A DNA stretch of 64,000 bases from Candidatus Omnitrophota bacterium. Lineage in GTDB: Bacteria; Omnitrophota; Gorgyraeia; Gygaellales; Profunditerraquicolaceae. Positions 11,037-33,669 of the stretch are shown one piece after another; position 1 is the stretch's first letter; every line of letters begins with the position of its first letter. Location of the stretch: positions 350,855 to 414,854 of the forward strand of contig JBAZJY010000002.1 in the NCBI GenBank assembly GCA_041651115.1. Reading direction: 5' to 3'. The position numbers and the translations under genes were made by a program. The notes beneath the pieces were generated by a model. That model was not told where the DNA came from. It saw nothing but the letters and a program-made list of their open reading frames with translations, and ran no database searches.

Positions 11037-11095
11037 TTTAAAGTGTTATAATTAAACGAGCTAAGATAGATTATTCATACAGTTAAGGAGCAAAA

Positions 11096-11299: not shown

Positions 11300-11651
11300 T
11301 GATGAAGAGGCTCTCACCCATCTTGTGAAGATGAATCTTGAAGCAACCGGCAATTATGAAGTAATGGCGGAAAACAGAGGGGCCAACGGGCTTGCAGATA
11401 TAAAATCGTTTAAGCCGGACCTGGTTTTATTGGATATTATCATGCCGGAGATAGACGGTTCGGACGTAGCCAGCCAGATAATGGCAGACCCGGAAACCTC
11501 CGGCACGCCGATAGTTTTTTTGACCGCGATAATCAGGAAAGAAGAGGCCGCGGCAAGCAAGGGGGTTATCAGCGGGTATCCTTTTATCGCCAAGTCCGTA
11601 AGCATTAAAGAGCTTATTGAGTGCATAGAGAAAAACGCGCGCAGGCAATAA
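11271..11651 (+). CDS. Single-domain response regulator (CheY-like REC)
   Basis: ILIIDDEE...DLVLLDIIMPEIDG receiver motifs. Confidence 0.8.
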   Translation: MTKKKILIIDDEEALTHLVKMNLEATGNYEVMAENRGANGLADIKSFKPDLVLLDIIMPEIDGSDVASQIMADPETSGTPIVFLTAIIRKEEAAASKGVISGYPFIAKSVSIKELIECIEKNARRQ

Positions 11652-11657
11652 AGGCCC

Positions 11658-13676
11658 ATGGAGCCCATTGACAAAGACCTGATATTGCGGCAGATCCCGC
11701 TGTTTGAGGCCTTATCGGCCGAAGAGAGCGAGCTGGTCAAGCCGCGGTCGGAGATCATTGAATACGGCAAGAACCAGGTAGTCTATGAAGAAGGCTCGCC
11801 TGCCGACGCATTTTATTGCGTTGTCCTCGGCAGGGTAGTGATCTACACGCGTGACCCATCCGGCAATGAGACAATCCTTGAATACCTGCATCGCGGAAAA
11901 TATTTCGGGATCATTTCGTTGCTTACCAATGACAGCCACTCGGTAAGCGCCCGCACGCTCAACGATTCGGCGCTGCTGGTCATTAAAAAGGAAGATTTTG
12001 ATTTTATACTTAAAAGTATCCCCAGGCTTGCCATAGACTTAAGCCTTACTCTTTCACGCCGCCTAAAAAATAAATCCGTCCACCAAAAAACGATCTTTGA
12101 AAGCACGATCGCCTCGGTATTCAGTTCCTACTCGCAGGCAGGCAAAACCGTTTATGCCCTGAACCTGGCGCTTAGCCTGCATAAGGAATCATGTAAATCG
12201 GTGTTGATCATTGATATCTGCGCCGAAGATGCAATCCACAGCCTGCCGCAGAAACTCGGGGTAAGCGCAGAGTATAAAGTTGTTGACCTTTCGGCGTTAT
12301 CCGGAAGCCCTGCGGATATAGTAAAGGCATCCATCGTAAAGAGCGCTTACGGCGCCGACCTTGTTTGTATAACTTATGCAGCGGAAGACGAATCAAGCCT
12401 GAAAAAACTCCTGGCTGTTTTAAGCCAGATGATAAACGATTATCATTACATCATCCTTGACCTGCCTTCGTCCATGGACCAGTTTGTGCTTGGCGCGCTG
12501 AACCAGTCTGACTTTATACATATATTGACCAGCCCCCAGGCAGTTGATTTGAAGAAGACGCATAACCTCATCAATCGGCTTAAGGATGATTTTCATTTCC
12601 AGGAAGCAAAGATCAGGGTAGTCATTAATGAATACAAGCTTTCCAAGATCAATTACCAGGAGCAGCGGGAGATCGTAGGTTTTAATATCCACGCGACCCT
12701 GCCGCGAATGGCGCTTGAATCATCCGACAGACTGGTGCTTGACGATCCGCTCTCGGAATATGCCAAGGCAGTAAGGAGGATCAGCCGGCAGCTGGCAGAT
12801 AACCTTGTGGGCCTGGCGCTGGGCATAGGCGTGGGTTACGGGTTCTGCCATATCGGCGTGCTTAAGGTTATTGAAGAGGAAAATATCCCCATAGACGTCA
12901 TTTCCGGATCAAGTATCGGTTCGCTGATTGCCAGCCTATGGGCAACCGGCAGGAGCGCTCAGGAAATACTTGAGATCATTAAAGAGGAGTTTAAACAACC
13001 CAAATATACATGGGGCCTTATTGACCTTACTTTTCCGTCGCTGGGTTTTATCAGGGGCAACAAGCTTTACAAATTTCTCAAAAAATATCTAGGCAGTAAG
13101 ACTTTTTACGACGTGCGGCTGCCGCTGAAGATCATTGCCAGCGATATCCGCAATAAGGAGCCGCGCGTGCTTGACAAGGGGCTCTTGATTGACGCGATCA
13201 TGGCAAGCTGCGCGATGCCCGGGGTTTTCCAGCCGTTTAAACTTAAGGAAGAATTGCTGCTTGACGGCGGAGTGATCAATCCCCTGCCGACGGAAGTGCT
13301 GTTTAAAATGGGGATCCGCAAAATTATCGCAGTCAACGTGACTCCCTCAAGGGAGGATATTTTAAAGCAATACGAGAGTTTAAAAGAACAATTTGCCTTA
13401 GCCGGCAAAGAGATCAAAAAAGGCAACTGGTTTAACCTGAAACATTATCTGCAGAAGAAATTCAGGACGAACATCCTGGATATAATCTTTAGCAGCGTTG
13501 AGTTGATGCAGTCGGAGATAATACGCAGGGAAGTCCTGCTTGCCGATGTTGTCCTGCATCCGGATACCAGCGGCCTGCATTGGCTTGAGCTTTACCGCGC
13601 CGTGGAATTTGCCCAGCGCGGGGAAAAAGAGGCGCGCGCCAACCTTGACAGGATCAAACAGATGTTGAATGAATAA
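11658..13676 (+). CDS. cNMP-binding domain / degenerate ParA-MinD-like / patatin-like phospholipase
   Basis: N-terminal cyclic-nucleotide-binding beta-barrel motifs (GKYFGIISLL); central SQAGKT plus ILDLP P-loop-like region; C-terminal GxGxxG, GSSIG (GxSxG) and DGG motifs of the patatin family. Confidence 0.8.
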   Translation: MEPIDKDLILRQIPLFEALSAEESELVKPRSEIIEYGKNQVVYEEGSPADAFYCVVLGRVVIYTRDPSGNETILEYLHRGKYFGIISLLTNDSHSVSARTLNDSALLVIKKEDFDFILKSIPRLAIDLSLTLSRRLKNKSVHQKTIFESTIASVFSSYSQAGKTVYALNLALSLHKESCKSVLIIDICAEDAIHSLPQKLGVSAEYKVVDLSALSGSPADIVKASIVKSAYGADLVCITYAAEDESSLKKLLAVLSQMINDYHYIILDLPSSMDQFVLGALNQSDFIHILTSPQAVDLKKTHNLINRLKDDFHFQEAKIRVVINEYKLSKINYQEQREIVGFNIHATLPRMALESSDRLVLDDPLSEYAKAVRRISRQLADNLVGLALGIGVGYGFCHIGVLKVIEEENIPIDVISGSSIGSLIASLWATGRSAQEILEIIKEEFKQPKYTWGLIDLTFPSLGFIRGNKLYKFLKKYLGSKTFYDVRLPLKIIASDIRNKEPRVLDKGLLIDAIMASCAMPGVFQPFKLKEELLLDGGVINPLPTEVLFKMGIRKIIAVNVTPSREDILKQYESLKEQFALAGKEIKKGNWFNLKHYLQKKFRTNILDIIFSSVELMQSEIIRREVLLADVVLHPDTSGLHWLELYRAVEFAQRGEKEARANLDRIKQMLNE

Positions 13677-16671: not shown

Positions 16672-16746
16672 GCCGAGGTAGCTCAGTGGTAGAGCGCGGC
16701 CCTGAAAAGGCCGGCGTGGGGGGTCCGATTCCCTCCCTCGGCACCA
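16672..16746 (+). tRNA. tRNA-Phe (anticodon GAA)
   Basis: Cloverleaf folded by hand: acceptor GCCGAGG/CCTCGGC, D-arm GCTCAGTGGTAGAGC, anticodon loop CTGAAAA, CCA encoded. Confidence 0.85.
16724..16743. repeat. attL: 20 bp core (tccgattccctccctcggca) inside the tRNA-Phe 3' end
   Basis: Identical 20-mer recurs at 33650..33669. Confidence 0.8.
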
Positions 16747-16919: not shown

Positions 16920-18044
16920 ATGAAAATTCAGGAACTGAGGGAAGATTTAACAGTTTTAGGGTTAGGGGATAATCTTAATTTAGCTGTATTGCTATATTTA
17001 TCCGCAACAGCCAGAAAGACCTCGTGCAAAATCTCCGTTCTTGTTTCCGGCCCTGCAGGATTAGGTAAATCTCATCTTGCCAAGAAGATATTAGAATTAT
17101 TCCCGTCAGAAGATATTATCGTAAGCTCCCGGATGACCCCCGCCGGTCTTATGGGGCTTGAAGATTTAAGGGGCAAGATCCTGTTTATTTACGAACGTTT
17201 TGAAGATCCGCTATTTGCTCAATACATTCGGGAGCTGATGACAGAGGGAGAAGTCAGGTATACCACGGCAGACGGCGAACGGTGTCTGAAGGGCCCGGTT
17301 ACCTTAATCGAGACTACCGTTAATCACAACATCATAGGTGCCGAGAACAGGTCGAGGTGTTTTGTGGTCGGCATAAATACTTCTCTCGAAGCAAAAAATG
17401 GAATTCTGGAGAAGCAGAAGGCGTTAAGAACCATGGAAGGTTTTCGTTATCAGGAGAATTTTGATTCTATTCAGAAAAAGCATAGGGAATTCCACCAAGG
17501 GTTAGACGAGTCTTTGTGGGTTATAATTCCCTTTGCGAAGAATATCAAATTTCAAGCCTCTCCGCATCACGCCCCGCGGATACTCCAGCGTGTCCTCAAT
17601 GTTATCGCAACTATAGCATATCTAGACCAGAATCCAACTCGTGTCGTCACTGAAGGCGGCACACGCTACATTGAAGCTACAACGACTGATTTCGAAGAAG
17701 CAAGGCAGCTACTTACCAATATTCCTATTGAAGAAGACGGTTCTCTGCTTTCTTATAAGGAGGTGGAATTTATTAATATGCTAAGAAGTCAAAGAGAGAG
17801 GCTGTCCAGAAAAACCTTTTTTTCGCGCAATGATTTATTGAATGCGTTGCCTCAAGAGAGCCCTTACAGGAGCTATAAGGTTGTTTCTAAAATCCTTGCT
17901 ACCATTAGTAGGCTTGGTTTCATTGATGAACTTCCGCTGCGGGGGATAAAGAATAGGGTAGAGTATCGTTTCAATAAGGAGTTTCCGTATATGTCTGAGG
18001 GGAATTCGATGTTGACGTGCTACTCAACGCTGAGTTTGGCGTAG
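16920..18044 (+). CDS. SF3-helicase-like P-loop NTPase (phage/plasmid primase-associated type)
   Basis: Walker A GPAGLGKS, acidic Walker-B-like FIYERFED, TTVNHN motif-C-like; first gene of the island. Confidence 0.5.
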   Translation: MKIQELREDLTVLGLGDNLNLAVLLYLSATARKTSCKISVLVSGPAGLGKSHLAKKILELFPSEDIIVSSRMTPAGLMGLEDLRGKILFIYERFEDPLFAQYIRELMTEGEVRYTTADGERCLKGPVTLIETTVNHNIIGAENRSRCFVVGINTSLEAKNGILEKQKALRTMEGFRYQENFDSIQKKHREFHQGLDESLWVIIPFAKNIKFQASPHHAPRILQRVLNVIATIAYLDQNPTRVVTEGGTRYIEATTTDFEEARQLLTNIPIEEDGSLLSYKEVEFINMLRSQRERLSRKTFFSRNDLLNALPQESPYRSYKVVSKILATISRLGFIDELPLRGIKNRVEYRFNKEFPYMSEGNSMLTCYSTLSLA

Positions 18045-18080: not shown

Positions 18081-18815
18081 TTGAAATTAGTTAGGTTAAA
18101 AATTTTAGTTTTGCCAGTTTTCACAAAAGAAAGGAATGACAAAATGGAAGACTTTAGAATTAAATACCGGCCACAAGATATGTCAGAAATTTGGGGCAAT
18201 GAATGTTTGAAAAAAAGATGGGCTGGGTATCTAAGGAGAAAATCTCCGCCTAAATCCATAATCTTGCACGGTAACTACGGCGTAGGCAAAACTACCCTAG
18301 CAAGGATTATTGGAGGGGATATCTTAAAACTCAGAGATAATAATTTTGGTTTATCTGGGGGTTTTCACGAATTGGATTCAACTAAGCTTGATTCTGAAAA
18401 CCTAAGAGGGTTTTTATCTAAGATTACGGGATATGTTCATGGAACTACGGTGTTGTTTTTTGACGAATTCCAAAGGATGCCCCCAAAGGCCCAAGAGATA
18501 CTTTTAAAGCCCGTTGAAGAGGACGACGATCTGTTTTGTGTCTTTGCAACAACGGATATGAACAGCATAGACGGCGGTATCCAATCAAGAAGCGATAAAT
18601 TCATCATCCAAAAACCCTCAATGGCGATCCTGATAGAGAAGCTTACTGAAATAGCCGAAAAAGAGGATATTGAGATTACGAAGGAAGCCTTGGGGTTTCT
18701 CATCGAGTTAGCTGATTATTCTCCACGCGAGTGCTTGGGGAATCTCTATTCTTTTGGGGGTTCCGATGGCATTATTGACGGAAAAGTGGTGCAACAATTC
18801 TTAAACCCTGATTAA
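18081..18815 (+). CDS. AAA+ ATPase, clamp-loader (DnaX/RFC-small)-like
   Basis: HGNYGVGKTTLARII Walker A, LFFDEFQRM Walker B, CVFATTD sensor-1. Confidence 0.6.
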   Translation: MKLVRLKILVLPVFTKERNDKMEDFRIKYRPQDMSEIWGNECLKKRWAGYLRRKSPPKSIILHGNYGVGKTTLARIIGGDILKLRDNNFGLSGGFHELDSTKLDSENLRGFLSKITGYVHGTTVLFFDEFQRMPPKAQEILLKPVEEDDDLFCVFATTDMNSIDGGIQSRSDKFIIQKPSMAILIEKLTEIAEKEDIEITKEALGFLIELADYSPRECLGNLYSFGGSDGIIDGKVVQQFLNPD

Positions 18816-19036: not shown

Positions 19037-20275
19037 TTGTCCGATTCAAAGAATAGAACTCCCCGGAGCCATATTTATAGGCGTCACAGGATGCACAGCC
19101 AGTCAATCATTGAACTGGAGCAGGCGATGCTGCCCGTCAAAGCGGCGATGCAGGCGCGCGGGCTCAATATCTGCTTGGAAAAATTAGATAGCCTAATCAA
19201 TAAGATTAACCATGAAAAATCAGACATAGAGTCTAACCTTCGCTCAAGCCTCGGCATTAAGGGCGAGATAAATTTCAACAGCTCAAAGGATATCGCGGTC
19301 ATTCTTTCCGCGGCCTTAGGGGTTAAATTGCTTAAGAGCCGCAGCGGTAGATTTATTACGAACAGGCAGGTTCTCCAAAATTTCAATAATCCTTTGACTG
19401 AAACTATTGCCCAATATCGCAACCTGCAAAAGATTTTGTCTTCCCTAACGGCTGTTTATGGAGCAACTGACAAAGCGGAAGCTAAACTATCCTGCATCTA
19501 TACTGATGATTGCCCCAGCGGTCGGCTTTATACCAAAAACTACAACATCCAAGGCATCGGCGAACTCTGCCGTGGTGTCGTTTATCCTGATGAGGGCTGT
19601 TCGTTTATCTTAGCGGACTACGATAGTTTTGAATTGCGAATTCTTAGCGCACTTGCCCACGATACCTATTTTAAAGACTGCTGGTCTAAAGGTTTGGATT
19701 TACACCGTAAAGTAGTCAGTGATATGAAAGGGATTCCCTACGAATCCGTAACTGCTAAGGAACGCAAACTCGGAAAATGTCTCAATTTCGGTCTTGCATA
19801 CGGTCAGGAGCCTCATGGATTGGCGCGTAATCTCCGTATTCCCGTTTCTGAGTCTTCTAAGTTAATGGCTGGCTATAAAAACAAGATTCCTAAGATTGAA
19901 GAATTTAAACGGGAGTCAATCCGTTCAGCGCATATCACCGGCTACACTAAGACTTACTACGGTCGCAAGCGCCTGCTTCCTGAAATCCTATCTTCTAATC
20001 TCCTCGATGCAAAGAAAGCTGAGCGGCAAGTCATTAATACCAAGATCCAAGGCACAGGGGCAGACATTGTTAAATTCAGCTTAGTTAAATTACATAACGC
20101 CGGGTTTAAAATAGACACCATGTTACACGACGGGATTTTAATTACGGTCTCAGACGATAAGGTCGACAGCAGCATTCAGAAGATCAGGGAAATTATGGAG
20201 ATAGAAATTGAAGGGATGAAATTTACTACTTCTATCAAAACCGGGAAGACGTGGGGCCAATGTCACCAATCTTAA
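19037..20275 (+). CDS. Family-A DNA polymerase, polymerase domain only (no exonuclease domains)
   Basis: Motif A ADYDSFELRIL, motif B KLGKCLNFGLAYG, motif C MLHDGIL; TTG start at 19037 or ATG at 19091. Confidence 0.75.
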   Translation: MSDSKNRTPRSHIYRRHRMHSQSIIELEQAMLPVKAAMQARGLNICLEKLDSLINKINHEKSDIESNLRSSLGIKGEINFNSSKDIAVILSAALGVKLLKSRSGRFITNRQVLQNFNNPLTETIAQYRNLQKILSSLTAVYGATDKAEAKLSCIYTDDCPSGRLYTKNYNIQGIGELCRGVVYPDEGCSFILADYDSFELRILSALAHDTYFKDCWSKGLDLHRKVVSDMKGIPYESVTAKERKLGKCLNFGLAYGQEPHGLARNLRIPVSESSKLMAGYKNKIPKIEEFKRESIRSAHITGYTKTYYGRKRLLPEILSSNLLDAKKAERQVINTKIQGTGADIVKFSLVKLHNAGFKIDTMLHDGILITVSDDKVDSSIQKIREIMEIEIEGMKFTTSIKTGKTWGQCHQS

Positions 20276-20439: not shown

Positions 20440-20745
20440 ATGAAACTGTTACCGAAAGAACTGGCACAAAAGATACCTAATCTCTATTCGCAGGAATATA
20501 AGGGCGAAGAGGCGTTGGTTTATATTAAATTATTCGATCCCTGCAGTAACTGGGCATGGTTTGCCACGGAATTTGATGGTGAGGATACTTTTTTCGGATT
20601 AGTGATTGGCCATTTTACAGAACTGGGCTATTTCAGCTTAAAAGAATTAGAGAGTTTTCGCAACCGTCTTGGGCTGGGTATTGAAAGGGATTTGCATTTT
20701 ACACCTATGACTCTAAAGGAAGTGAGGGAAGTAAATGGCTGCTAG
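20440..20745 (+). CDS. DUF2958-like conserved phage/plasmid protein
   Basis: LPxLYSQE...KLFDP..NWAWFATEFDGEDTFFGLV..ELGYFSL.ELE....LGLGIERDLHF pattern recalled from plasmid/ICE proteins. Confidence 0.5.
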   Translation: MKLLPKELAQKIPNLYSQEYKGEEALVYIKLFDPCSNWAWFATEFDGEDTFFGLVIGHFTELGYFSLKELESFRNRLGLGIERDLHFTPMTLKEVREVNGC

Positions 20746-20793
20746 GTCTATATTTTTATTGATAATTATTCTGCCGGTAGTATCATAATTCCT

Positions 20794-21399
20794 ATGACAA
20801 TACAAGAGCGCTACGAAGCATTAAAAGGTAAAGTCGTTAAGAGAAAGAAGGAATTCGATTCCTTCATAAAGATGTTGGAGTCAGAGTCAAGTTGGCTCAC
20901 AAGTCCGGCAAGCACGAGGTTCCATTTGAACAAAGAAGGTGGGCTTTTGGAGCATAGTGTTGGCGTTACTGAAACTCTCCTGAAATTCAGAGAGTTCCTC
21001 GCTCCTCAAATATCAGAGGAATCTTGCGTAATTGTTGGGCTTCTTCACGATGTCGGCAAGATAGGCATGCCTGGCAAACCTAGGTATTTGAAGAATGATA
21101 ACCAATGGGAGATCGATAAACGAGGTATTACCTATAAGATCAACCCCGCAGAGGTAGATATGAATCTTGCCGCACGCAGCTTGTATCTCATTGCAAAATA
21201 TATCCCGCTTTCTGACTCAGAGGCCCAAGCTGTTCTTTATCACGATGGCCAATTTTTAGATTTTAACAAGGAAGTGGCGCATAAAGAGACGCCCTTGACT
21301 CTTTTAGCGCATTGGGCTGATTACTGGACGGCGCATATCTATGAAGAAGGCCGTAGCATTAATGAAGATAGTGATTATTATACTGGAGATAGAAAATAA
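20794..21399 (+). CDS. HD-domain phosphohydrolase
   Basis: H..H, LLHDVGK and a late D motif of the HD superfamily. Confidence 0.7.
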   Translation: MTIQERYEALKGKVVKRKKEFDSFIKMLESESSWLTSPASTRFHLNKEGGLLEHSVGVTETLLKFREFLAPQISEESCVIVGLLHDVGKIGMPGKPRYLKNDNQWEIDKRGITYKINPAEVDMNLAARSLYLIAKYIPLSDSEAQAVLYHDGQFLDFNKEVAHKETPLTLLAHWADYWTAHIYEEGRSINEDSDYYTGDRK

Positions 21400-21401
21400 A
21401 T

Positions 21402-22355
21402 ATGTATCAACCAATGCATTCAGATTTTCTTATACACTGGACAGGCAAGGACATTGATGCAAAATATGACCCTAGGTGGTATACAGGACATTCATCGCGG
21501 ACAAGTGAGAAGGCTATCAAGTTATATTTGCAGCGTCTTAAAGGCATCTTATACCACGGCTTGTGGATGACAAAGCGCAGAGAAGATGAGACGGTTGTTA
21601 TTTATGATAACAATGGGAAGAGAAGAAAAATTAAGAGACCAGAAACAGCGAGGATATGTTTTACTGAATTGCGGCTGTCTGACGCGCGGGCTCATGCGAA
21701 AAAGTTTGGAAGGTTAGGTATTGGATTTAAAAGATTTTTTGTATTCAACCTTTTAGGAGCTCCCGTGGTCTATTTTCATCCTCAGAGAGCTAACTGGTTT
21801 TTTCCTCCTTATTTCGACTGGTTCAAAAAGATTGGCAAGGAAGCGTATTTCTCATGTTTTTTGAAAAAGATGGGGGAGAAAGATAGGAAAGACAGGACTT
21901 GGAAGTATAAGTTTTTCGATGAATCAGAATGGCGCGTAGTGTATTCTCCAGAGATTAAAGAAAAATTAGTAAGTATGGGGAGAACTGATGTATGTTCCGG
22001 ATTTAAAGAATCCGGAGATAAAGAATTTAAGAGGCTTGAAAGATATTTAGAAAAGACTGGCATAAAGGAGAGGCCGAGTTATCTCATTCCTATAAATCCA
22101 TCTCGGTGGTTCGCTATGATCATTTATCCTAGTTTAGCTGTAAAAGTCATAGCCGAAAGGGATCCCGATATTAGAAGAATTATAAATAAACTGAAATCTG
22201 GCAGAGAGAGCGTGGATGGGATGGAAGCAACCATCAGCAAAGATTGGCCATCAGGGGTATCTTCCGTCGGAGCTATCGGGAAGGCCAAATCGGCTTCCCT
22301 TGAAGATTTTAATCTGCCAATTCAGATTGACTTAGACGCTTGTAGAAATTTCTAG
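21402..22355 (+). CDS. Hypothetical protein (317 aa), function unknown
   Basis: ORF translationally coupled to the HD gene (stop and start 2 nt apart). Confidence 0.5.
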   Translation: MYQPMHSDFLIHWTGKDIDAKYDPRWYTGHSSRTSEKAIKLYLQRLKGILYHGLWMTKRREDETVVIYDNNGKRRKIKRPETARICFTELRLSDARAHAKKFGRLGIGFKRFFVFNLLGAPVVYFHPQRANWFFPPYFDWFKKIGKEAYFSCFLKKMGEKDRKDRTWKYKFFDESEWRVVYSPEIKEKLVSMGRTDVCSGFKESGDKEFKRLERYLEKTGIKERPSYLIPINPSRWFAMIIYPSLAVKVIAERDPDIRRIINKLKSGRESVDGMEATISKDWPSGVSSVGAIGKAKSASLEDFNLPIQIDLDACRNF

Positions 22356-22371
22356 AAACTAGAAAGGCAGT

Positions 22372-23136
22372 ATGAATATACTTATTACAAATGACGATGG
22401 TATCAATTCTGATGGTATCTTCACTTTGTTCGAAGCGGTTAAAGAGCTTGGTAATGTAACCGTTGTAGCCCCTGATTCAGAACGAAGTGCCGCGGGCCAT
22501 GCTATAACGATATCCGATCCTTTGCGCGTGAAGACAGTGAACCGTAACGGTAAGTTTTTTGGATATGCGTGTTCAGGGACACCGGCGGACTGCGTCAAAC
22601 TAGCTGTAAGGGCATTGATGAAGGATAAACCCGACATAGTCATATCCGGGGTTAATCTGGGCCCAAACACTGGTTTTAGTGTTTTATACTCTGGTACGGT
22701 ATCAGGAGCAACTGAGGGTGCAATATTAGGCATACCAGCCTTTGCAATATCTCTGGGAACTTTCGATAACCCTGATTTTAGTATAGCAGCTGAATTTGCC
22801 AAAAAATTAGTAGTTCTGCTTAGAGAAAAAGGTCTTCCGAAGGGAACCCTGTTAAATGTCAATATCCCTGCTGTAAAAAATAGAAATGATATCAGAGGCA
22901 TAAAGGTTACTACTCAAAGCAAGACTTCATTGGTAGAGCATTTCGATAAGCGGGAGGATCCCCGTAAACACGTCTATTACTGGCTTACAGGTGAGCTGAT
23001 AGAGTTGGACGGGGAGGAAGATAGTGACATCAAAGCACTACGGGATAATTTTATCTCCATAAGCCCCGTTCATTGTGATATGACTAACCGCGCCTTTATC
23101 GATGAGCTAAAGAAGTGGGATTTTGAGAGGCGTTAA
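22372..23136 (+). CDS. surE: 5'/3'-nucleotidase SurE
   Basis: MNILITNDDGINSDGI N-terminus and a SurE-like core. Confidence 0.85.
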   Translation: MNILITNDDGINSDGIFTLFEAVKELGNVTVVAPDSERSAAGHAITISDPLRVKTVNRNGKFFGYACSGTPADCVKLAVRALMKDKPDIVISGVNLGPNTGFSVLYSGTVSGATEGAILGIPAFAISLGTFDNPDFSIAAEFAKKLVVLLREKGLPKGTLLNVNIPAVKNRNDIRGIKVTTQSKTSLVEHFDKREDPRKHVYYWLTGELIELDGEEDSDIKALRDNFISISPVHCDMTNRAFIDELKKWDFERR

Positions 23137-24206
23137 AATATATTAAAGGCCCGGCTGCAACCCAAGCTTTTGTTTTTTAAATACCAGCCTAAATTATCCA
23201 ATTCTCTATTGTCTTTTACGATCTGTTCGTAAATGTCCTCCCAAGTCAGATGGGTAAACCGCTTTTTGTATTCAGCTTTTAACATAGAGCGGACATTACG
23301 CATAACAGGCATGCTTTCAGGCTCGCCGCGCTTTAAATTCATCGCGTGCCTGTTCCTTAAGTTCACTACATACCATCTTTTCGCGCCTTCCAAATGAGCC
23401 ATTGATGCAGCGAATACAATATTCCTAAATAGCTGCTCGTAGAATGGGTTCGGCATATCACTAAAATCAAATATGCTGTTAGTATCTATTAGTTTGTTAT
23501 GGGTGCAGTATCTCGTTATTGACCTATCTGCTGCTTTTGGCTTTTCGCCCTCAACATCTTCTTTTTCTTTTGCTATAGAGTTTTTACTCCCAAACTTAGC
23601 CTCTATACATATGATAACCTTATTCGGGACGACAAGCATTATGTCCGGTTCAGTAGCGAATCGCTTTATATCACTTTCAAGGTGCTTGCGAACATCTAAT
23701 AGAGGGGCGTAAGGCGTGAATTTATTGTTTTTAAGATCAATCTTTCCGCCCCACAGATACAAGTCTACCTTATCCTTTATATCTTCATTGATTATTTGGC
23801 TCGCTAGTTTATTTAGCGCCAGTCCGTTTGATAGTAGCTCCGTAAATACATTGTAAGATACCGCATCTTCGCTGTTTTCATAGCACAGCCTTCCAGATTC
23901 CATTTTGTTGCCTTTTTTGAAGAAATTTGCTATGTAGTATTCTCCATTGAATAATAAATTACGCTTGGTGGCGGTCAGCAGGTTTGAGTCAAAGGGCCCA
24001 TTATAATATACGAATCCATTGGTATGTATCCGCAGGCCGTGTTCAGGGCAGAAGGGTAAATATCTCATTTTACCCTTGAAGCGCTGGAAGGGAACCTTAT
24101 GGCTATGGGTATCTGATGAGCAGTTTTTGATTGGGCAGCTATTAGGAAGTCTCGTTTTTTGAAGGTCGTTTCTGAAGAATGATATTGTGCAGCTTGAATC
24201 GGGCAT
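23133..24206 (-). CDS. PD-(D/E)xK-type nuclease with N-terminal Cys-rich (Zn-ribbon-like) region
   Basis: PDIMLVV...IICIEAKF matches a D..(D/E)xK core; CPIKNC...CPEHG; convergent with surE. Confidence 0.5.
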   Translation of the reverse strand: MPDSSCTISFFRNDLQKTRLPNSCPIKNCSSDTHSHKVPFQRFKGKMRYLPFCPEHGLRIHTNGFVYYNGPFDSNLLTATKRNLLFNGEYYIANFFKKGNKMESGRLCYENSEDAVSYNVFTELLSNGLALNKLASQIINEDIKDKVDLYLWGGKIDLKNNKFTPYAPLLDVRKHLESDIKRFATEPDIMLVVPNKVIICIEAKFGSKNSIAKEKEDVEGEKPKAADRSITRYCTHNKLIDTNSIFDFSDMPNPFYEQLFRNIVFAASMAHLEGAKRWYVVNLRNRHAMNLKRGEPESMPVMRNVRSMLKAEYKKRFTHLTWEDIYEQIVKDNRELDNLGWYLKNKSLGCSRAFNIF

Positions 24207-24911: not shown

Positions 24912-25142
24912 ATGGGTAAAAATCAGCACGTTGTGCCTTATGGTGATAAGTGGGCAGTTAGAGGTGAGAAAAACAGCAGGATAACTTCTGATCACCACAC
25001 GCAGGGAGCGGCGATTAGTGCTGCAGTAAAAATAGCCAAGCACGAGAAATCAGAAGTAGTGATACACGGCAGGGATGCGAAGATTCGGGATAAAGATAGC
25101 TACGGATCTGATTCTTGCCCGCCAAGAGACAAAAAATATTAA
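24912..25142 (+). CDS. DUF2188-like small protein (paralog 1)
   Basis: NQHVVPYGDKWAV...EVVIHGRDAKIRDKDSYG pattern; paralog at 27304. Confidence 0.6.
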   Translation: MGKNQHVVPYGDKWAVRGEKNSRITSDHHTQGAAISAAVKIAKHEKSEVVIHGRDAKIRDKDSYGSDSCPPRDKKY

Positions 25143-26126: not shown

Positions 26127-27293
26127 ATGCGCAGAGGCATAGTTGATATCGTACAGGAGAATAGCAGGGACATAGAAAGAAAAATTCTTTCTGAGTTCGC
26201 GACAAAAAGTTGTGATGCTTTAAGGCGGTTACCGGAGAAATTAGGCGTTAGGCCCGATTTCTTTAGGGACACGGATAGGATATTGCATTCTAAATGTTAT
26301 GCGAGATATATTGATAAAACACAGGTATTTTATTTATTTGATAATGATGATATTACTCATCGAGTATTACATGTTCAATTTGTCTCTAAGATTGCCAGAA
26401 CCATTGGTAGAGCTTTAAAACTGAATGAAGATTTAATTGAAGCAATAGCGTTAGGGCACGATGTTGGGCACCCTCCCTTTGGGCATGAAGGTGAAAGTTA
26501 CTTAGACGAACTTTGTTTGCATTACAAAATAGGTCATTTTGTTCATAGTGTTCAAGGAGTAATTTTTTTAGACAAAATTGAGAAAAGAATGGAGATAAAA
26601 CCATTGAATTTAAGTTTACAAGTTTTAGATGGCATACTTTGTCATGATGGCGAGAAATTTAATGATTATTTAATACCTCAAAGAAAGAAAACATGGTCAA
26701 CACATTATAATGAACGAAAGGAGAAGATGTTTAACAAGCAAGTAGCGCTCGTTCCAATGACCATGGAGGGTTGTGTTGTTAGATTTGCGGATGTTGTAAG
26801 CTATATTGGAAGAGATATTGAAGACGCTATAACGCTAAGACTAATAAAAAGACAAGATCTGCCAAGGGAATGTACAAAGGTATTAGGGGATAATAACAGA
26901 GATATAATTAACACATTAGTTACCGATTTGATAGAAAACAGCAAAAGAATTGGCGACAGGATATATTATAGTAAAAGAACCTCTAAGGTTTTAAAGAAAC
27001 TTAAGAAATTTAATGACAAAAATATCTACTTGAATAAAAAAATAAAGAGAGAATCCCCAAAAAATAAAAAATTATATACTCTTCTATTCGAAGAATTTCT
27101 TCATGATATAAAAGTAAAAAACAGTAGATCAGAAATATTTACTCAATGGAGTGACATTAAAGATGCCAAGTATATTTCAAAATGTAGACACCCAGAAATC
27201 GTACGCGATTTTTTGTCATCTCTTACAGATGATTATTTTATAGGGCTTTTTGAACGGAAATTTTTCCCAAGAAGATTTGGAATACATTTCTAA
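26127..27293 (+). CDS. dGTP-triphosphohydrolase-like HD-domain protein (Dgt family-like)
   Basis: H..RxxH at the N-terminus, ALGHDVGHPPFGHEGE signature of the dGTPase family, later D motif. Confidence 0.7.
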   Translation: MRRGIVDIVQENSRDIERKILSEFATKSCDALRRLPEKLGVRPDFFRDTDRILHSKCYARYIDKTQVFYLFDNDDITHRVLHVQFVSKIARTIGRALKLNEDLIEAIALGHDVGHPPFGHEGESYLDELCLHYKIGHFVHSVQGVIFLDKIEKRMEIKPLNLSLQVLDGILCHDGEKFNDYLIPQRKKTWSTHYNERKEKMFNKQVALVPMTMEGCVVRFADVVSYIGRDIEDAITLRLIKRQDLPRECTKVLGDNNRDIINTLVTDLIENSKRIGDRIYYSKRTSKVLKKLKKFNDKNIYLNKKIKRESPKNKKLYTLLFEEFLHDIKVKNSRSEIFTQWSDIKDAKYISKCRHPEIVRDFLSSLTDDYFIGLFERKFFPRRFGIHF

Positions 27294-27303
27294 AGGAGGA
27301 GAG

Positions 27304-27534
27304 ATGAGTAGAAACCAACATGTCGTTCCCTACGGAGACAAATGGGCTGTGCGAAAAGAAGGGAATACTAGGATAACATCTTCACACATAACTCGGAGAG
27401 ATGCTATCCATACTGCGAATAGAATTGCTTCGTCGGAAGCTTCTGAAGTGGTTATACATGGTAGAGACGGGAGAATTCGAGATAAAGACAGTTACGGTTA
27501 CGATGCGTTACCACCACGATGCAGGAAATACTAA
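27304..27534 (+). CDS. DUF2188-like small protein (paralog 2)
   Basis: MSRNQHVVPYGDKWAV...EVVIHGRDGRIRDKDSYG; RBS aaggagga; ORF-track start 27250 rejected. Confidence 0.6.
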   Translation: MSRNQHVVPYGDKWAVRKEGNTRITSSHITRRDAIHTANRIASSEASEVVIHGRDGRIRDKDSYGYDALPPRCRKY

Positions 27535-27686: not shown

Positions 27687-27935
27687 TCAAGCTAATTTAC
27701 ACTCGAATTCATCTAAGTCCTGCCGGCTTTTAGCAATGATTTCTTTTATGCATGTCTGGCAGTAAACCTTTCTTCCCATGCTGCCGGGAATAGGAACTAC
27801 AATGCATACAGTTCCTCCGTAAATCGCTGTGTTGCACCTTTTGCAAGTTCGTTTTCCTTTTGCAGTGTCTAATTTTGGCGCTCCATGTGTTCCATTGATA
27901 AGAGAAGGACATTTTCCACGTTTTTTACTTATCAC
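27687..27935 (-). CDS. Small Zn-ribbon protein (82 aa)
   Basis: CKRCN...CIVV...CQTC Cys quartet; directly downstream of the helicase and overlapping it. Confidence 0.45.
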   Translation of the reverse strand: MISKKRGKCPSLINGTHGAPKLDTAKGKRTCKRCNTAIYGGTVCIVVPIPGSMGRKVYCQTCIKEIIAKSRQDLDEFECKLA

Positions 27936-29952
27936 CCTTAGCCTCCTTTTTAGTTAAGCGTCTTGTTAGGACATTGAGAATATTGTCAAGGGCTTCTATC
28001 GCTTTTACATAGTCTTCAGTTCGTAACTTTTCCCGTTCGCCTTTTTCAATTCCGAGCTGCTTATTTACCTCATGATTTATAAGTTGGACAGCGGCTGCAA
28101 AGTTAGGCCCAGTGACTCCACTACTCTGAGCAAGTTTATAGGCTAAATCTTTTCCGTCAAATGAGATGTCCAAGCGATTCAACAATAGTTTTGCCGCTCG
28201 TTTTACCTCTTCATGCAAACGTCGCTTCGCCTCGTTCCTTTGCCGTTGGGGAATTACAGGGAAAGGTATGGTGGATTCCACTTTGTTTATTTTATCCCCT
28301 TGTTTATTTTTGAGGAATTCTGCTATGTCTTGAGCATCAATTCCAAGTGACTCAGCGGTAGCTTTCATTTCTTCGATAAGTATCTCGTCTTCCACATCAA
28401 TGAAATGTTCCTGTAGGAAGCTATCCACTATTTCATTGCGAATGATCGTAGATTCACTAAGTTTTAATCTTGTACTACCTTCAAGCACCTCTCGAGGAGG
28501 CTCGGGTTCTTTGCCTTTAATAATATCTGTGAAGAATTCTCGGTCGTCCCTGTCAATTTCACGGAAATCAGCAAGATGGGTATCTATGTTAAGCCCAATA
28601 TGTGTTACTATGTGACCATAATTATCAGGGTGTCGAGGGTCATTTTGGACGATGACACGCATTACTCGACCAACGAATTGGACATACGGTGGTAGGGTGC
28701 GGAAAGGCCTAAATATAGCTGCAACACTTAAATGAGGGTGGTCAAATCCCTCGCCGAGCATTTGAACTTGGATAATACAATCTAAGGCGCCCGCTCTCAA
28801 TTTATTTAAGACAGCATCTTGCTCATCGGGTAGCATTTTACTATGGATTTCCGCTGCTTCATAACCACGCTCAGCATATAGAGAGCGTATTGCCTTTGCA
28901 TGATTTACTGAACACGCAACTGCTATTAGTTGGTGCTTTGTTCCAGATTGCCGCAGATGTTCGAGTTTGTCGAGACTTGCGTCTACGATATTTTTATTAC
29001 AGACTGGGGATAAAGCCACACCACGACTAAACCATTCTTCATCTTTTAACACCAATACTTCTTCAAGTGTGTGGTATTTTTCATCACCTTCATATGTAAA
29101 ATAGAGTTCTTTAGGTGCGACATATGTTGCCTGTAATTTTTTTATGTAGCCTTTTATCATTGCCCGTTTGAATGAATACTTGTAAATTAGTTCACCTTCA
29201 ATTTCTTGTTGGTCACTTCTGAATGGCGTAGCAGTTAAATTAACAACCTTTGCATCCGGGAATCTACTAAATACTTTTTTCCAACTCGGGGCCGCACTAT
29301 GGTGTCCTTCGTCTACCAGAATCATATCAAAGAAATTATTTGTAAACTGTGGGAGCCAGCGGTCGGCGCTACTCGCCAGTTGCTGTATATTTGTCAAAAC
29401 AAAATGCGACTGTTCGCAATCATGGATGTTGGCATCGATGCTATCGAGAATAGCAAGATACGGGCCGGCTAAGGTTACGTCCGGATTCAGCACCCGGCAT
29501 TTAAACCAGAAGCAGTTTCTACGATTGGCGATATCTAAAGCCTTTCTTAATTCATCTCTGATGGTGAGATTTGGCGCGATCACGAGGATCCTTCCTTGGG
29601 CAATTCCAAGTGGAAGTAACGTAATGAGCCCTGATTTTCCACATCCAACCGGTAATTGAATTAACGCTTTTTTGGCTCCTTTCTCGAAAAAATTACGGGT
29701 TGCTATGTATGCTTCTTTCTGTGGGTCTCTTAATAGTAAATTGTCTTCTATTTTGAAATCCAGCGAAGCAAAGAAATTACCCATGGATTTATTAGCTTTT
29801 ATCCACTTGTCTAATTCAAGAACTTGGAATCGCCACATTTTTCCTACTTTGTGAGCAGGTATCCGGTTGCTCTGCGCAAGTGCGTATAAATTCGTTATGC
29901 TGATATCAAGATATTTTGCTGCTTCCTCTGCGTTTAGCCATTCTTCTCTCAT
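27925..29952 (-). CDS. HTH (excisionase/MerR-like) + SF2 DEAH/ResIII-type helicase
   Basis: N-terminal LNAEEAAKYLDISITNLY...HKVG.MWRF HTH; Walker A PVGCGKSG; DEGH box; TATP motif III; QFVGRVMR motif VI. Confidence 0.75.
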   Translation of the reverse strand: MREEWLNAEEAAKYLDISITNLYALAQSNRIPAHKVGKMWRFQVLELDKWIKANKSMGNFFASLDFKIEDNLLLRDPQKEAYIATRNFFEKGAKKALIQLPVGCGKSGLITLLPLGIAQGRILVIAPNLTIRDELRKALDIANRRNCFWFKCRVLNPDVTLAGPYLAILDSIDANIHDCEQSHFVLTNIQQLASSADRWLPQFTNNFFDMILVDEGHHSAAPSWKKVFSRFPDAKVVNLTATPFRSDQQEIEGELIYKYSFKRAMIKGYIKKLQATYVAPKELYFTYEGDEKYHTLEEVLVLKDEEWFSRGVALSPVCNKNIVDASLDKLEHLRQSGTKHQLIAVACSVNHAKAIRSLYAERGYEAAEIHSKMLPDEQDAVLNKLRAGALDCIIQVQMLGEGFDHPHLSVAAIFRPFRTLPPYVQFVGRVMRVIVQNDPRHPDNYGHIVTHIGLNIDTHLADFREIDRDDREFFTDIIKGKEPEPPREVLEGSTRLKLSESTIIRNEIVDSFLQEHFIDVEDEILIEEMKATAESLGIDAQDIAEFLKNKQGDKINKVESTIPFPVIPQRQRNEAKRRLHEEVKRAAKLLLNRLDISFDGKDLAYKLAQSSGVTGPNFAAAVQLINHEVNKQLGIEKGEREKLRTEDYVKAIEALDNILNVLTRRLTKKEAKGDK

Positions 29953-30052: not shown

Positions 30053-30296
30053 ATGGGGTAGATATTTAAATCTAAAAGATTTCTTTGGGTAGCTGCGTTG
30101 AAATACTCAAGTTTTCTCTAAAAAACTTTTACCTTTTTAGCATAACTCCCCTCGGCATAAGCAGTTAGTAAATTCCTTCCATTCATTTCAGAGTTAATTT
30201 CCGTCGGTAAAATTACATAAAAGGTTAAAACTTTTTTACATTTTTCATTGACAAATAAGTACCATATGGTTCTTATATTGTTAGGAGGTGATTGTT

Positions 30297-31112
30297 ATGA
30301 ATTCCGACGAGATTGCGGTTGGCTATATACGAGTTAGCAGTATCAATCAGGTGGAAAATGGTGGTGGTTTGGCTATCCAGAGGAAGAAGATAACCAACTT
30401 CTGCAGAGAAAAAGGCTACAATCTAGAACGTTTCTACGAAGAAAGGGGAATTTCCGGCAGCATTAAAGAACGCCCTGCGTTATTAAGATTGTTAAAGGAC
30501 TGCGAGTCTGGTTTAATCAAAAGGGTAGTAGTTTTTCGTCAGGATAGGTTAGCTCGTGAATTAACAGTTTCCCTCTGGCTCGAGACTCAATTCAAGAAAT
30601 ATGATGTAGCAGTCAGCTCAGTTCTGGATCCAGAACTCGATATGAATGACCCGCTGCAGCTCGCTTTTAAAAGGCTGATTGATGTGTTTGCTGAATTAGA
30701 GAAAACACTTATTGTGACCCGTCTTAGAGAAGGCCGGGTTGATAAGGCCGAGAATGGACGTAGAGCTGTCGGTGCAATTGCTTTTGGCTATTATAAAGAG
30801 AAAGACGGTTTGGTTGTTAACCTTGAAGAATCCGAATGGGTGAAAAAGATTTTTCGGAACGCAGCTAAGGGAAAGAAATACTCAGAGATTGTGGCGATGC
30901 TTAAAAAGAACGGCGTAGTTACACGGCGAAAGAAACCGTTCAGTATTGAAACAGTTAAGTATGTCTTACGAAACTCTTTTTATTATGGTGAGTCAACCTA
31001 CGGCGATATAAAGAGCAGGGGGGAGCATAGGCCTATTATTAGTAAACGACTTTTTGTTAGAGTTCAAAAGGTCAAAAGGAAAGAAGTATTGTTACCAGCT
31101 AGGGTTTCGTAG
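30297..31112 (+). CDS. Serine recombinase (resolvase/invertase family)
   Basis: VGYIRVSS catalytic Ser motif, RLARE; RBS aggagg 8 nt upstream of ATG 30297. Confidence 0.8.
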   Translation: MNSDEIAVGYIRVSSINQVENGGGLAIQRKKITNFCREKGYNLERFYEERGISGSIKERPALLRLLKDCESGLIKRVVVFRQDRLARELTVSLWLETQFKKYDVAVSSVLDPELDMNDPLQLAFKRLIDVFAELEKTLIVTRLREGRVDKAENGRRAVGAIAFGYYKEKDGLVVNLEESEWVKKIFRNAAKGKKYSEIVAMLKKNGVVTRRKKPFSIETVKYVLRNSFYYGESTYGDIKSRGEHRPIISKRLFVRVQKVKRKEVLLPARVS

Positions 31113-32320: not shown

Positions 32321-32508
32321 GTAACCTTTTAACTCCAGAGCAAGTATGCGAGAGGTATGGTATAAGCCGGTGGACGCTCTATCAGTGGACATCCAAGCAT
32401 CTTATACCATATCTCAAGATTAGAGGGCTAAACCGTTTCAGGGAAGAAGATCTTGAGAAGTGGGAAGAACAAAATCTGGTAAGCGATGGGAAGGCTGAAT
32501 TGGTATGA
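32317..32508 (+). CDS. xis: Excisionase / AlpA-like HTH protein
   Basis: QVCERYGISRWTLYQW motif; immediately upstream of the integrase and overlapping it. Confidence 0.6.
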   Translation: MSNLLTPEQVCERYGISRWTLYQWTSKHLIPYLKIRGLNRFREEDLEKWEEQNLVSDGKAELV

Positions 32509-33572
32509 GACAGCGTTATCGAATGCCAAAATCTATTTACCCCCGTGGCAACTGGTATTGCTTTAAGGTAACTACTTCTTATGGCAAGAGAGTCGAGGTT
32601 AAGTCAGCCACCATGGAAGAGGCGCGTAAGAAACGCAACGATATAGAGCGTCAGATATTCAGTGCCGTGTCTGGAGATCCATCCTATAGAGTTAGCCTTG
32701 AGCATGGAATAGGGTTTTGGCTAAAAATTAAGAAAGGAAGTATCGACGATACCTCATATGATAGATACCGGGGATGTTTAGATAACTTCCTTGATTATAT
32801 TAAGGCAAAACGCTCCGATTTACAATATTTCGACCAAATAAAAGCGGAGGACATTAAGGCATTTATGGACTATCGGATCGAAGAGAAGGGGCGGGCGACT
32901 AAGACCGTGAATTCTGAAAGGCTGGCTTTATACAACTTATTTCTTACCTTGATTAAACATAAGAAAATTGAAGGTAGTAATCCCGTGGAAAATGTTGACC
33001 CATTAAAAATGATTAAGGTCCAAAAGAGGCATGCTCTTTCTGATGAGGAATTGTTGAAATTTCTTGAGGGTGCCAAGGCAGAAAGCGGGGCTATTAATTG
33101 GTATGCTATCTTTCTTACCTTATATATAACCGGCATGAGAAGGGATGAGGTTCGGAAGATGGAGAAAACAGCAATAGACCTGTCCAGAAATCTGATAATT
33201 ATTTTGAACACCAAAACCGATAAGCCAAAGATCATACCGATACATCCTGAATTGCGGCCAGTATTGCAGCAGGCGTTGGGGCAGTCCAATAGCGGCTTGG
33301 TATTTCCTAACTCTAAAGGCGGGCTGCTTCATAAGAACAAAATTCGGGATAAGATGATTCAGATATGTGAGAGGGTCGGTATCCCTAAAGCAACGGTTCA
33401 CGATTTACGCCATACATTCGCGAGCCGCCCAGAATTATCCGGTATGGCCAAGCAACTTATAGGCGGTTGGAGCAGCAAGCAGGTAATGGAGAAAACCTAT
33501 ATTCACGCCCCCGAGGATTATGTTCGAGATGAGTATTTTAAGGTTAAGTTCATACCGAAGGCAGGAAACTAA
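32505..33572 (+). CDS. int: Tyrosine integrase (phage integrase family)
   Basis: Conserved R...HDLRHTFAS...Y catalytic region; adjacent to attR. Confidence 0.85.
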   Translation: MRQRYRMPKSIYPRGNWYCFKVTTSYGKRVEVKSATMEEARKKRNDIERQIFSAVSGDPSYRVSLEHGIGFWLKIKKGSIDDTSYDRYRGCLDNFLDYIKAKRSDLQYFDQIKAEDIKAFMDYRIEEKGRATKTVNSERLALYNLFLTLIKHKKIEGSNPVENVDPLKMIKVQKRHALSDEELLKFLEGAKAESGAINWYAIFLTLYITGMRRDEVRKMEKTAIDLSRNLIIILNTKTDKPKIIPIHPELRPVLQQALGQSNSGLVFPNSKGGLLHKNKIRDKMIQICERVGIPKATVHDLRHTFASRPELSGMAKQLIGGWSSKQVMEKTYIHAPEDYVRDEYFKVKFIPKAGN

Positions 33573-33649: not shown

Positions 33650-33669
33650 TCCGATTCCCTCCCTCGGCA
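33650..33669. repeat. attR: second copy of the 20 bp tRNA-Phe 3' core
   Basis: tccgattccctccctcggca identical to 16724..16743. Confidence 0.8.

Follow-up and report, generated by a model that had tools for sequence, protein, structure and literature searches.

In Escherichia coli, the classical neighbourhood of surE is formed by pcm and nlpD. In the defence hotspots of prophages and satellites, such as P2/P4-type elements and the cargo regions of phage-inducible chromosomal islands (PICIs), backbone genes delimit slots that are filled with differing defence genes. Here we analyzed a stretch of 64,000 nucleotides from a Candidatus Omnitrophota bacterium (assembly GCA_041651115.1, contig JBAZJY010000002.1, positions 350,855 to 414,854), referred to as the window throughout, which contains a 16.9-kb mobile element integrated at a tRNA-Phe gene and equipped with a phage-like replication module. 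The element encodes a small HD-domain protein (20794–21399, + strand) and a SurE nucleotidase (22372–23136, + strand). Comparison with related loci revealed that HD and SurE are an old, co-inherited and strongly conserved pair on Omnitrophota-associated mobile elements, with the two genes translationally coupled in most relatives, and that the genes in between and next to them are exchangeable.

Several described systems resemble parts of this arrangement. In phage T5, the A1-dependent breakdown of the host DNA is followed by the action of the deoxynucleoside monophosphate phosphatase Dmp, resulting in nucleosides (bioRxiv 10.64898/2026.04.02.716235). The pre-early A1 and Dmp proteins share with the pair the proposed two-step logic, in which neighbouring genes of a virus-like element provide a phosphoesterase or nuclease and a phosphatase for mononucleotides. 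Unlike T5, the element in the window is integrative and there are no virion genes in the window. YhaM, or Cbf1, of Bacillus and Staphylococcus is a Mn-dependent 3′ exonuclease for single-stranded DNA and single-stranded RNA, in which nucleic-acid binding depends on an OB domain comprising residues 20–90 (PMC12107432). The HD protein shares the catalytic fold type of YhaM, whereas the gene of YhaM is chromosomal and LexA-regulated and that of the HD protein belongs to mobile elements and phages. The conflict systems with ADP-ribosylglycohydrolases (ARG) and rhodanese-type phosphatases join phosphoesterases, including HD and 5′-nucleotidase types, to a fast-evolving restriction endonuclease (REase) (PMC9503650, Iyer et al. 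2022). Neither an ADP-ribosylglycohydrolase nor a rhodanese-type phosphatase, Nudix/WYL regulator or chaperone was found among the element genes scanned, and the HD protein in the window is YhaM-like, not alarmone-hydrolase-like. Among phages, the HD phosphohydrolases of phrog_28876 and phrog_5889, exemplified by Dp-1 gp21, FP_Epona gp27 and a Saumur protein, are 28–33% identical to the HD protein and are encoded beside a clamp loader, polymerase or resolvase, yet no SurE is present in the neighbourhood in these three phage regions, and the SurE matches in the phage collection belong to other records. Some of the phage homologues are also twice as long (about 415–435 aa). The canonical SurE, the stationary-phase survival protein, is matched over its full length as an equivalog by the SurE of the window, which differs in being carried by a mobile element and coupled to a predicted HD nuclease. 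Like the prophage and satellite hotspots, the slots around the pair hold AbiGi-like, REase-ARP, restriction–modification (R-M), AIPR, DUF4238, SLFN and RelA/SpoT genes. The difference lies in the hosts, which are Omnitrophota and neighbouring phyla, and in the delimiters, which are HD and SurE. No paper on an HD–SurE module was found in our literature search, and a module of this kind framing hypervariable cargo slots is undescribed as far as our searches show.

The HD–SurE pair

HD loci were gathered from species-representative genomes, IMG/VR and JGI metagenomes and reduced to a non-redundant set of 85, of which 66 with at least 1 kb of sequence downstream of HD were informative. The first three contexts already had HD followed by SurE with nothing or one unrelated small gene between them, and the pairs were followed by different variable genes, namely DUF4238 and AIPR, ParA and RelA/SpoT, and SLFN/AlbA and EMARD. 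SurE directly follows HD with a stop-to-start gap of −4 to +3 nt in 23 of the 66 informative loci (directly adjacent pairs number 26 once loci with shorter downstream sequences are counted), a single gene is inserted between the two in another 10, and 33 have no SurE after HD. The pair is thereby present in 33 of 66 informative loci, and in 29 of the 38 in which HD is at least 77% identical to that of the window. These pairs are embedded in at least three backbones: a PolA type, a terminase type consisting of a methyltransferase, an HTH protein, TerL (phrog_38, 1.3e-91), a repressor, p334 and p178, and a type with a NucS/NERD-like protein (c10) upstream. Scanning IMG/VR returned three weak or partial matches, which implies that the elements are not catalogued as viruses there. 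One short contig (L087, 253–1792) has the reversed order with SurE directly upstream of HD. A clade-II locus without SurE (L031) has a phosphatase of the inositol-monophosphatase/CysQ family (10641–11429; Pfam 2.9e-66) after HD, which may have taken the place of SurE as another sugar-phosphate or 3′-phosphate phosphatase, or be just a chromosomal neighbour.

In a neighbour-joining tree of the HD proteins, linkage to SurE is confined to one clade with 33 linked and 11 unlinked loci, whereas no SurE accompanies HD in the sister clade, which numbers about 27 loci and includes those of Sedimentisphaerales. This distribution fits one gain followed by occasional loss. Pairs of loci that are more similar in HD also tend to be more similar in SurE (Spearman 0.24 for pairwise identities, p 2.5e-8), and both genes are under strong purifying selection, as indicated by ratios of nonsynonymous to synonymous divergence (dN/dS) of 0.068 for HD and 0.058 for SurE, at saturated synonymous sites. 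The dN values of HD and SurE are between 0.13 and 0.17, compared with 0.37 for PolA and the p178 neighbour on the same elements. Clustering at 90% identity leaves more than 120 clusters that are 78–91% identical to the HD protein of the window.

The pair in the window lies within mobile DNA, as the original prediction had assumed in treating the locus as island cargo. The last 20 nt of the tRNA-Phe gene (16672–16746, + strand; ARAGORN, Rfam tRNA 63.5 bits) at 16724–16743 recur as an exact direct repeat at 33650–33669, where the copy begins 78 nt past a tyrosine integrase gene (32505–33572, + strand; Pfam Phage_integrase 4.8e-20). We estimated the chance expectation for such 20-bp repeats in 64 kb at about 0.002. 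The two copies were assigned as the left and right attachment sites (attL and attR). An integrase together with direct repeats, one of them within a tRNA gene, defines an integrative mobile element. The GC content is 0.33–0.44 in the element, continuing to about 38 kb, and about 0.47–0.50 farther out on both sides.

The HD protein consists of 201 residues (Pfam HD 25.6 bits, cut-off 22), and its AlphaFold2 model, built on 69 sequences with a mean predicted local distance difference test score of 90.2, is a wholly helical HD domain. A Foldseek comparison of the model with the PDB identified YhaM (9h3f) as the top match, and a profile hidden Markov model (HMM) comparison with the PDB aligned the motifs PA(S/A)T..H, GL..H and HD.GK with YhaM, despite a sequence identity of only 14–16% to YhaM/Cbf1. 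The protein thus has the features of a YhaM-type HD catalytic domain. The N-terminal nucleic-acid-binding OB fold is absent from the 201 residues, so the HD protein is YhaM-like in its catalytic domain and not a YhaM orthologue; we annotate it as a predicted YhaM-type HD-domain nuclease/phosphodiesterase without an OB fold. Nine residues are invariant in the family (H44, H54, H85, D86, K89, H150, D151, H163 and D176), more than the four ligands that a one-metal HD phosphatase has, and this set suggests a two-metal phosphodiesterase or nuclease centre. A triphosphohydrolase for deoxynucleoside triphosphates (dNTPs) of the dGTPase/SAMHD1 type was rejected on the fold comparison. The HD protein lacks the dGTPase-model match, the HD_assoc domain and the large SAMHD1-like fold (about 400–500 aa) of such enzymes, and the PADLOC dGTPase model does not match the HD gene, compared with 1.2e-49 for a separate gene at 26127. 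In PADLOC v2, the only HD matches were to Cas3-HD at 1.2e-4 and 8e-3, which we regard as noise. The (d)NTP dephosphorylation that had been proposed as the first step of a pathway is unlikely because the HD protein has a YhaM-type nuclease domain and is not a dNTP triphosphohydrolase.

The HD family is large, with 2,008 and 2,217 hits in searches at 90% clustering and 2286 representatives at 50% clustering (E ≤ 1e-3), which are mostly stand-alone proteins of about 200 aa, and the extensions found in homologues gave no clear fused domain. Phage homologues were detected in phrog_28876 and phrog_5889 at 1e-20 and in BFVD at 4e-11. The HD homologues of Dp-1 (gp21), FP_Epona (gp27) and Saumur end the replication module, with clamp loaders and a Holliday-junction resolvase gene nearby, a neighbourhood resembling that in the window, where HD comes after a clamp-loader-like protein and PolA. 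HD copies with 59–81% identity also occur on short contigs of metagenome-assembled genomes labelled Woesearchaeota, Halobacteria, Thermoplasmatota and 'uncultured archaeon' (L024, L039, L041 and L042), for which binning errors are a more likely explanation than an element crossing domains.

The SurE protein matches the family models over its full length and well above their cut-offs (NF001492, 312 versus 271 bits; NF001490, 280.8 versus 233; TIGR00087, 246.5 versus 135.1; Pfam 2.7e-64), including an NCBIfam equivalog. Its N-terminal N-D-D-G motif, which we take to be the catalytic metal-binding motif of SurE structures, is intact, and the sequence reads MNILITNDDGINSDG. By its predicted activity, the protein of the element is a bona fide SurE 5′/3′-nucleotidase. 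PADLOC v2 returned no match for SurE.

Exchangeable genes around the pair

The original prediction had joined HD and SurE with three neighbours into one nucleotide-metabolising system: a DUF2958 protein (20440–20745, + strand; Pfam 1.5e-14), a 317-aa protein (21402–22355, + strand) and a convergent nuclease (23133–24206, − strand). All five open reading frames (ORFs) were confirmed at these coordinates. Translational coupling of the first four genes was borne out only in part: HD and the 317-aa gene are separated by 2 nt, but there are 48 nt between DUF2958 and HD and 16 nt between the 317-aa gene and SurE. The 3′ ends of the SurE gene and the convergent nuclease gene overlap by 4 nt.

The 317-aa protein, previously thought to have no recognisable domain, has a weak match to AbiGi, with 26.9 bits in Pfam (cut-off 22.4) over a stretch of only 56 residues and 1.1e-7 in PADLOC over residues 75–190. 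We found 547 homologues of this AbiGi-like protein. Four other contexts were sampled, comprising an integrase island with HipBA, a site beside SIR2/DUF87 genes and two chromosomal-looking sites; none of the four had HD, SurE or DUF2958 nearby. An AbiGii partner is missing beside the gene in the window, and no annotated partner was present in the four contexts, which hold some small ORFs without a Pfam match. In one of these contexts (L007, 1–2329), the AbiGi-like homologue stands in a gene run with a SIR2_2 and DUF87 (HerA-like) pair at a distance of six genes (about 5.7 kb), which fits the AbiGi-like family being generic cargo of defence islands.

The convergent gene encodes a member of the REase-ARP family (PF22558; Pfam 3.5e-11, 43.7 bits, cut-off 27), with the motif EPDIMLVV...IEAKFG providing the PD...E-x-K core as read from the sequence. 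The earlier description as a Zn-ribbon/PD-(D/E)xK nuclease is hence supported for its nuclease domain; the Zn-ribbon is putative, its candidate residues (C24/C29 and C53/H56) lying in the longest ORF, while the public gene calls start later and give 311 or 256 aa. The Cys/His motif is missing from the other REase-ARP members compared. Judging from the Pfam name, REase-ARP most likely corresponds to the 'rapidly evolving REase' of the ADP-ribosylglycohydrolase/phosphatase conflict systems. PADLOC returned nothing for either DUF2958 or the REase-ARP protein. In the full-text literature, no record of REase-ARP was retrieved, and DUF2958 is mentioned in passing in two unrelated papers.

Neither the AbiGi-like gene nor the REase-ARP gene is a constant companion of the pair. 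The inserts between HD and SurE belong to at least six unrelated families, among which are a 135-aa protein with an HNH-like motif, proteins of 178, 187 and 200 aa with PD-(D/E)xK-like motifs, a 379-aa HTH_17 protein and the AbiGi-like protein, the last being found in the window only among the 85 loci. The small inserts gave nothing significant in Pfam, and their nuclease assignment was made by eye only. The inserts are spaced from HD and SurE by a few nt to 44 nt. Integron-like cassette recombination sites at the insert borders were considered and rejected in view of the tight abutment and because no flanking repeats were seen, albeit with no dedicated repeat search. The slot after SurE is occupied differently in nearly every locus. 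A hotspot is characterized by constant flanking genes and a slot that related elements fill with unrelated genes. The AbiGi-like gene and the REase-ARP nuclease are thus interchangeable defence-like cargo in two hotspots delimited by HD and SurE.

DUF2958 belongs to the PolA-type replication backbone and not to the HD–SurE pair. It precedes HD in 4 of the 85 loci, three of which are beside the Rep/PolA module, while the remaining one, L058, is truncated on the upstream side; in L060, PolA occurs without DUF2958. The nearest relative of the locus in the window, L058, has HD, SurE and DUF2958 proteins with 92%, 76% and 67% identity, respectively; it carries one more gene upstream of HD and another insert, and REase-ARP is replaced by an R-M pair (nuclease-like c9 and an N6_N4 methyltransferase). 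The combination of DUF2958, HD, the 317-aa protein and SurE was absent from the 84 other HD loci and from the four AbiGi-like contexts, recurring only on an identical 3.9-kb contig. Of the proposed nucleotide-metabolising system, the HD–SurE pair can be retained, whereas neither a system of four genes nor the function proposed for the nuclease nor a chemistry of dNTP depletion holds. An operon on an island is not a system merely by being tightly spaced. Only two of the five genes survive the comparison with relatives.

Genes with nuclease folds dominate the flanks of HD and of the pair. Pfam searches with 129 flanking proteins, some of which match more than one nuclease family, identified REase-ARP (9 proteins, best 8.9e-48), PDDEXK_13 (7), PDDEXK_4 (6), NERD (6) and NucS_C (5), and PADLOC added the single-gene defence candidates PDC-S26 (5) and PDC-S11 (5). 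The same nuclease families are located upstream of, downstream of or convergent to HD in different loci, and they are 30–60% identical where HD keeps 68–80%. Flank nucleases supported by Pfam are c14 and c63 (REase-ARP), c20 (PDDEXK_4) and c10 (NucS_C/NERD). An iterative HMM search starting from the nuclease in the window found no relatives at a strict threshold among 1018 locus proteins, leaving the neighbours assigned to PD-(D/E)xK by eye (c2, c5, c9, c18, c21, c37, c51, c53 and c77) unconfirmed.

Possible functions of the pair

With moderate confidence, we interpret the pair as a backbone nuclease–nucleotidase module that would degrade nucleic acid or oligonucleotides to nucleosides, with cargo hotspots arranged around it. 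By analogy with YhaM, the HD protein might attack single-stranded DNA, RNA or short oligonucleotides at the 3′ end, cleaving phosphodiester bonds and releasing 5′-mononucleotides, from which SurE would strip the phosphate. If the two enzymes were to act in this order, their net effect would be the irreversible conversion of nucleic acid or oligonucleotides into nucleosides and phosphate. The position of HD and its phage homologues connect it to the replication/recombination module, and the pair might be a backbone function tied to this early module of the element. The purpose could be the takeover of nucleic acid from the host or a competitor, or control of the nucleotide pool, as with A1 and Dmp of phage T5, which offer the nearest functional precedent. 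If the pair does yield nucleosides, it would represent a second, unrelated solution to the task of A1 and Dmp, found on integrative elements from an uncultured phylum about which little is known, and SurE, usually regarded as a housekeeping enzyme of stationary phase, would gain a role on mobile elements. Three genes upstream of HD lies the PolA gene of the element, which encodes a polymerase without exonuclease domains, and it is conceivable that the HD protein serves as a trans-acting partner for editing or end processing.

Several observations weigh against this interpretation. Half of the HD loci are without SurE, which implies that HD works without it. The clade of HD proteins with 51–54% identity occupies a conserved chromosomal site beside hypE and hypD, extending to a HycI-like gene. 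Members of this clade (L044–L051, e.g. L046 9995–10600) come from Omnitrophota, Ratteibacteria, TA06 and others, and their HD gene always sits between the genes of a 345-aa secreted-looking protein and a 135-aa protein; the genes following hypE and hypD are presumably hypC, hypF, hypB and hypA, labelled by position only. Likewise, HD proteins of Sedimentisphaerales (73–75% identical) occupy a syntenic site between LolA-like and flavodoxin-like genes, and two unrelated nuclease-like families, c5 and c21, alternate directly after HD in the same orientation. The gene order in five of these loci (L036, L126, L136, L123 and L120) is LysR-like, HAD-like, LolA-like, HD and flavodoxin-like. These chromosomal clades mean that the HD family is not exclusively a gene of mobile elements, and c5 and c21 mean that the pairing of HD with a variable nuclease exists outside recognisable mobile elements. 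Furthermore, an HD protein without an OB fold may act on small molecules such as dinucleotides, cyclic oligonucleotides or dinucleoside tetraphosphates (Np4N), and the enrichment of nuclease folds among the neighbours on either side, which extends to distant HD clades, could reflect a functional link between HD and the nucleases instead of the chance of cargo that our interpretation assumes.

A more far-reaching but tentative reading, which we consider possible though unlikely, is a two-enzyme conflict module of Omnitrophota and neighbouring phyla, in which immune signals or the nucleic acid of invaders would be converted to nucleosides and the pair would form the fixed frame of a nuclease/Abi hotspot.

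An anti-defence function, which we judge unlikely, would have the HD protein open immune signals as a phosphodiesterase or ring nuclease, with cyclic oligoadenylates, cyclic di- or trinucleotides, or products ending in 2′,3′-cyclic phosphates as substrates, and SurE remove the 3′ or 5′ phosphates. It is equally doubtful that such a pair would shield the element or a helper phage from cyclic-oligonucleotide-based antiphage signalling systems (CBASS), type III CRISPR and similar systems. Small substrates are plausible for an HD protein without an OB fold; the invariant His, Asp and Lys residues point to a two-metal centre of the phosphodiesterase type; and the very slow evolution of the pair fits an invariant small-molecule target rather than a protein. 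Its presence on mobile elements and its phage homologues would also suit this role. No homology to known anti-signal enzymes was found, as far as the names in PADLOC, Pfam and PHROG tell, and the homologues in cultured phages lie among replication and recombination genes instead of early anti-defence clusters. The chromosomal clades beside the hyp genes do not conform to such a role either. If the substrate should be an immune signal, the pair would bring in a new class of counter-defence enzymes.

The abundance of nucleases in the flanks raises the question of a true defence system, in which the variable REase-fold protein would cut the invader, HD would chew the ends and SurE, where present, would destroy the mononucleotides. 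The association persists in the SurE-less clade with c5 and c21 and in an HD clade of 59–61% identity, and the flank nucleases evolve much faster than HD. A conserved core combined with a rapidly evolving REase is a hallmark of described conflict systems (PMC9503650), provided that REase-ARP is the equivalent of that REase. Some of the flank nucleases, however, are accompanied by their own methyltransferase (c9 and c42) and would hence be self-sufficient R-M systems. The occurrence of the same families upstream, downstream and convergent to HD argues against a fixed operon logic, the neighbours in many loci are not nucleases (LolA-like, flavodoxin, inositol monophosphatase, RCC1), and the nuclease beside the phage homologues is a Holliday-junction resolvase with a function in replication. 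We find this explanation unlikely, too. In any case, the slowly evolving HD gene is a handy anchor for finding hypervariable nuclease and defence cargo in Omnitrophota and related metagenomes.

The small inserts and neighbouring nucleases might also be free-standing homing endonucleases that exploit a conserved HD–SurE target, comparable to the seg and mob genes of T4-like phages. In favour of this, different small nuclease-like families (HNH-like and PD-(D/E)xK-like by eye) share the same slot, the spacing of a few nt to 44 nt leaves room for a short signal at most, and family c18 is present in the same slot in two HD lineages and backbones. The inserts, however, co-diverge with their HD and SurE neighbours (90–93% versus 88–95%) with no recent lateral spread seen, the insert in the window is AbiGi-like and not a recognisable nuclease, and the small inserts are nucleases by eye only, which makes homing improbable.

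We regard it as highly improbable that DUF2958, HD, the 317-aa protein, SurE and the nuclease form one (d)NTP-depleting defence, in which HD would dephosphorylate dNTPs and SurE would finish the reaction: although closely spaced genes on one strand of a mobile element and defence-like AbiGi-like and REase-ARP neighbours gave this impression, the combination is unique to the locus in the window, DUF2958 goes with PolA, at least five other families or no gene at all take the place of the AbiGi-like gene, REase-ARP gives way to R-M pairs, AIPR, SLFN and others, and the dGTPase model of PADLOC matches the gene at 26127 instead of HD. There is just as little to commend the idea that SurE is the only housekeeping copy of the organism, captured by chance or merely adjoining HD without a functional link, because, despite scoring as a canonical equivalog, the gene lies within att-bounded mobile DNA, the HD–SurE junction recurs in 33 loci whose flanks are unrelated and which represent at least three backbones, and the linkage pattern is that of one gain with clade-wide retention.

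Other genes of the tRNA-Phe element and its surroundings

The genes of the element begin with an AAA-type putative replication initiator of 374 aa (16920–18044, + strand), which has weak AAA_22/AAA_16 matches and a weak match to the plasmid MTBMA_p00010 domain, followed by a phage-type clamp-loader-like AAA+ protein of 244 aa (18081–18815, + strand; phrog_5846 clamp loader 3.4e-35, DnaX N-terminal 1.3e-21) and a family A DNA polymerase (19037–20275, + strand). The polymerase consists of the polymerase domain only (Pfam DNA_pol_A 4.7e-70, residues 49–407), aligning with positions 486–889 of Pol I and possessing neither the 3′–5′ nor the 5′–3′ exonuclease domain. The initiator and PolA are kept together in L017, L060 and L063. 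DUF2958, HD, the AbiGi-like gene, SurE and, on the opposite strand, REase-ARP come next, followed by DUF2188, a membrane protein, a dGTPase-type homologue and a second DUF2188. The right part contains a Cys-rich protein and an HTH–ResIII helicase on the opposite strand, a serine recombinase (30288–31112, + strand; resolvase and recombinase domains, Pfam 1.7e-28 and 2.2e-18), small HTH proteins and the tyrosine integrase. An integrase with 67% identity to that of the window adjoins the 374-aa initiator gene (Rep374) in L018.

The dGTPase-type dNTP triphosphohydrolase (26127–27293, + strand; PADLOC dGTPase 1.2e-49, Pfam HD and HD_assoc) is preceded by the 248-aa membrane protein and bracketed by the DUF2188 genes at 24912–25142 and 27250–27534, which are 68% identical to each other. 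If there is any nucleotide-depletion defence on the island, it is this gene and not the HD/SurE operon. The 82-aa Cys-rich protein and the HTH_17–ResIII–Helicase_C helicase of 675 aa (27687–29952, − strand; Pfam) are shared, at 51% and 67–69% identity, respectively, with the terminase-type HD–SurE elements L013 and L021 (L013, 1–1753), making the element in the window a mosaic relative of them.

No RNA element or riboswitch upstream of the operon was above the Rfam threshold between 16 and 34.5 kb except for the tRNA. Predicted promoters (15 versus 19±5 in shuffled sequence) and terminators (12 versus 7.5±3.2) were not clearly above the shuffled level and are thus uninformative about the limits of the operon.

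Outside the element, a second stretch of low GC content (0.36–0.42) at 51712–56000 begins right after a tRNA-Met gene (51712–51787) and holds an AIPR (abortive-infection-type) protein (53808–54998) and a RES-domain protein (55056–55970), which may represent another small defence islet. In a 672-aa protein encoded just outside the island (11658–13676), a cyclic-nucleotide-binding domain is joined to a ParA/MinD-like ATPase domain and a patatin phospholipase domain, and this predicted architecture of a lipase regulated by cyclic nucleoside monophosphates is reminiscent of nucleotide-activated effectors.

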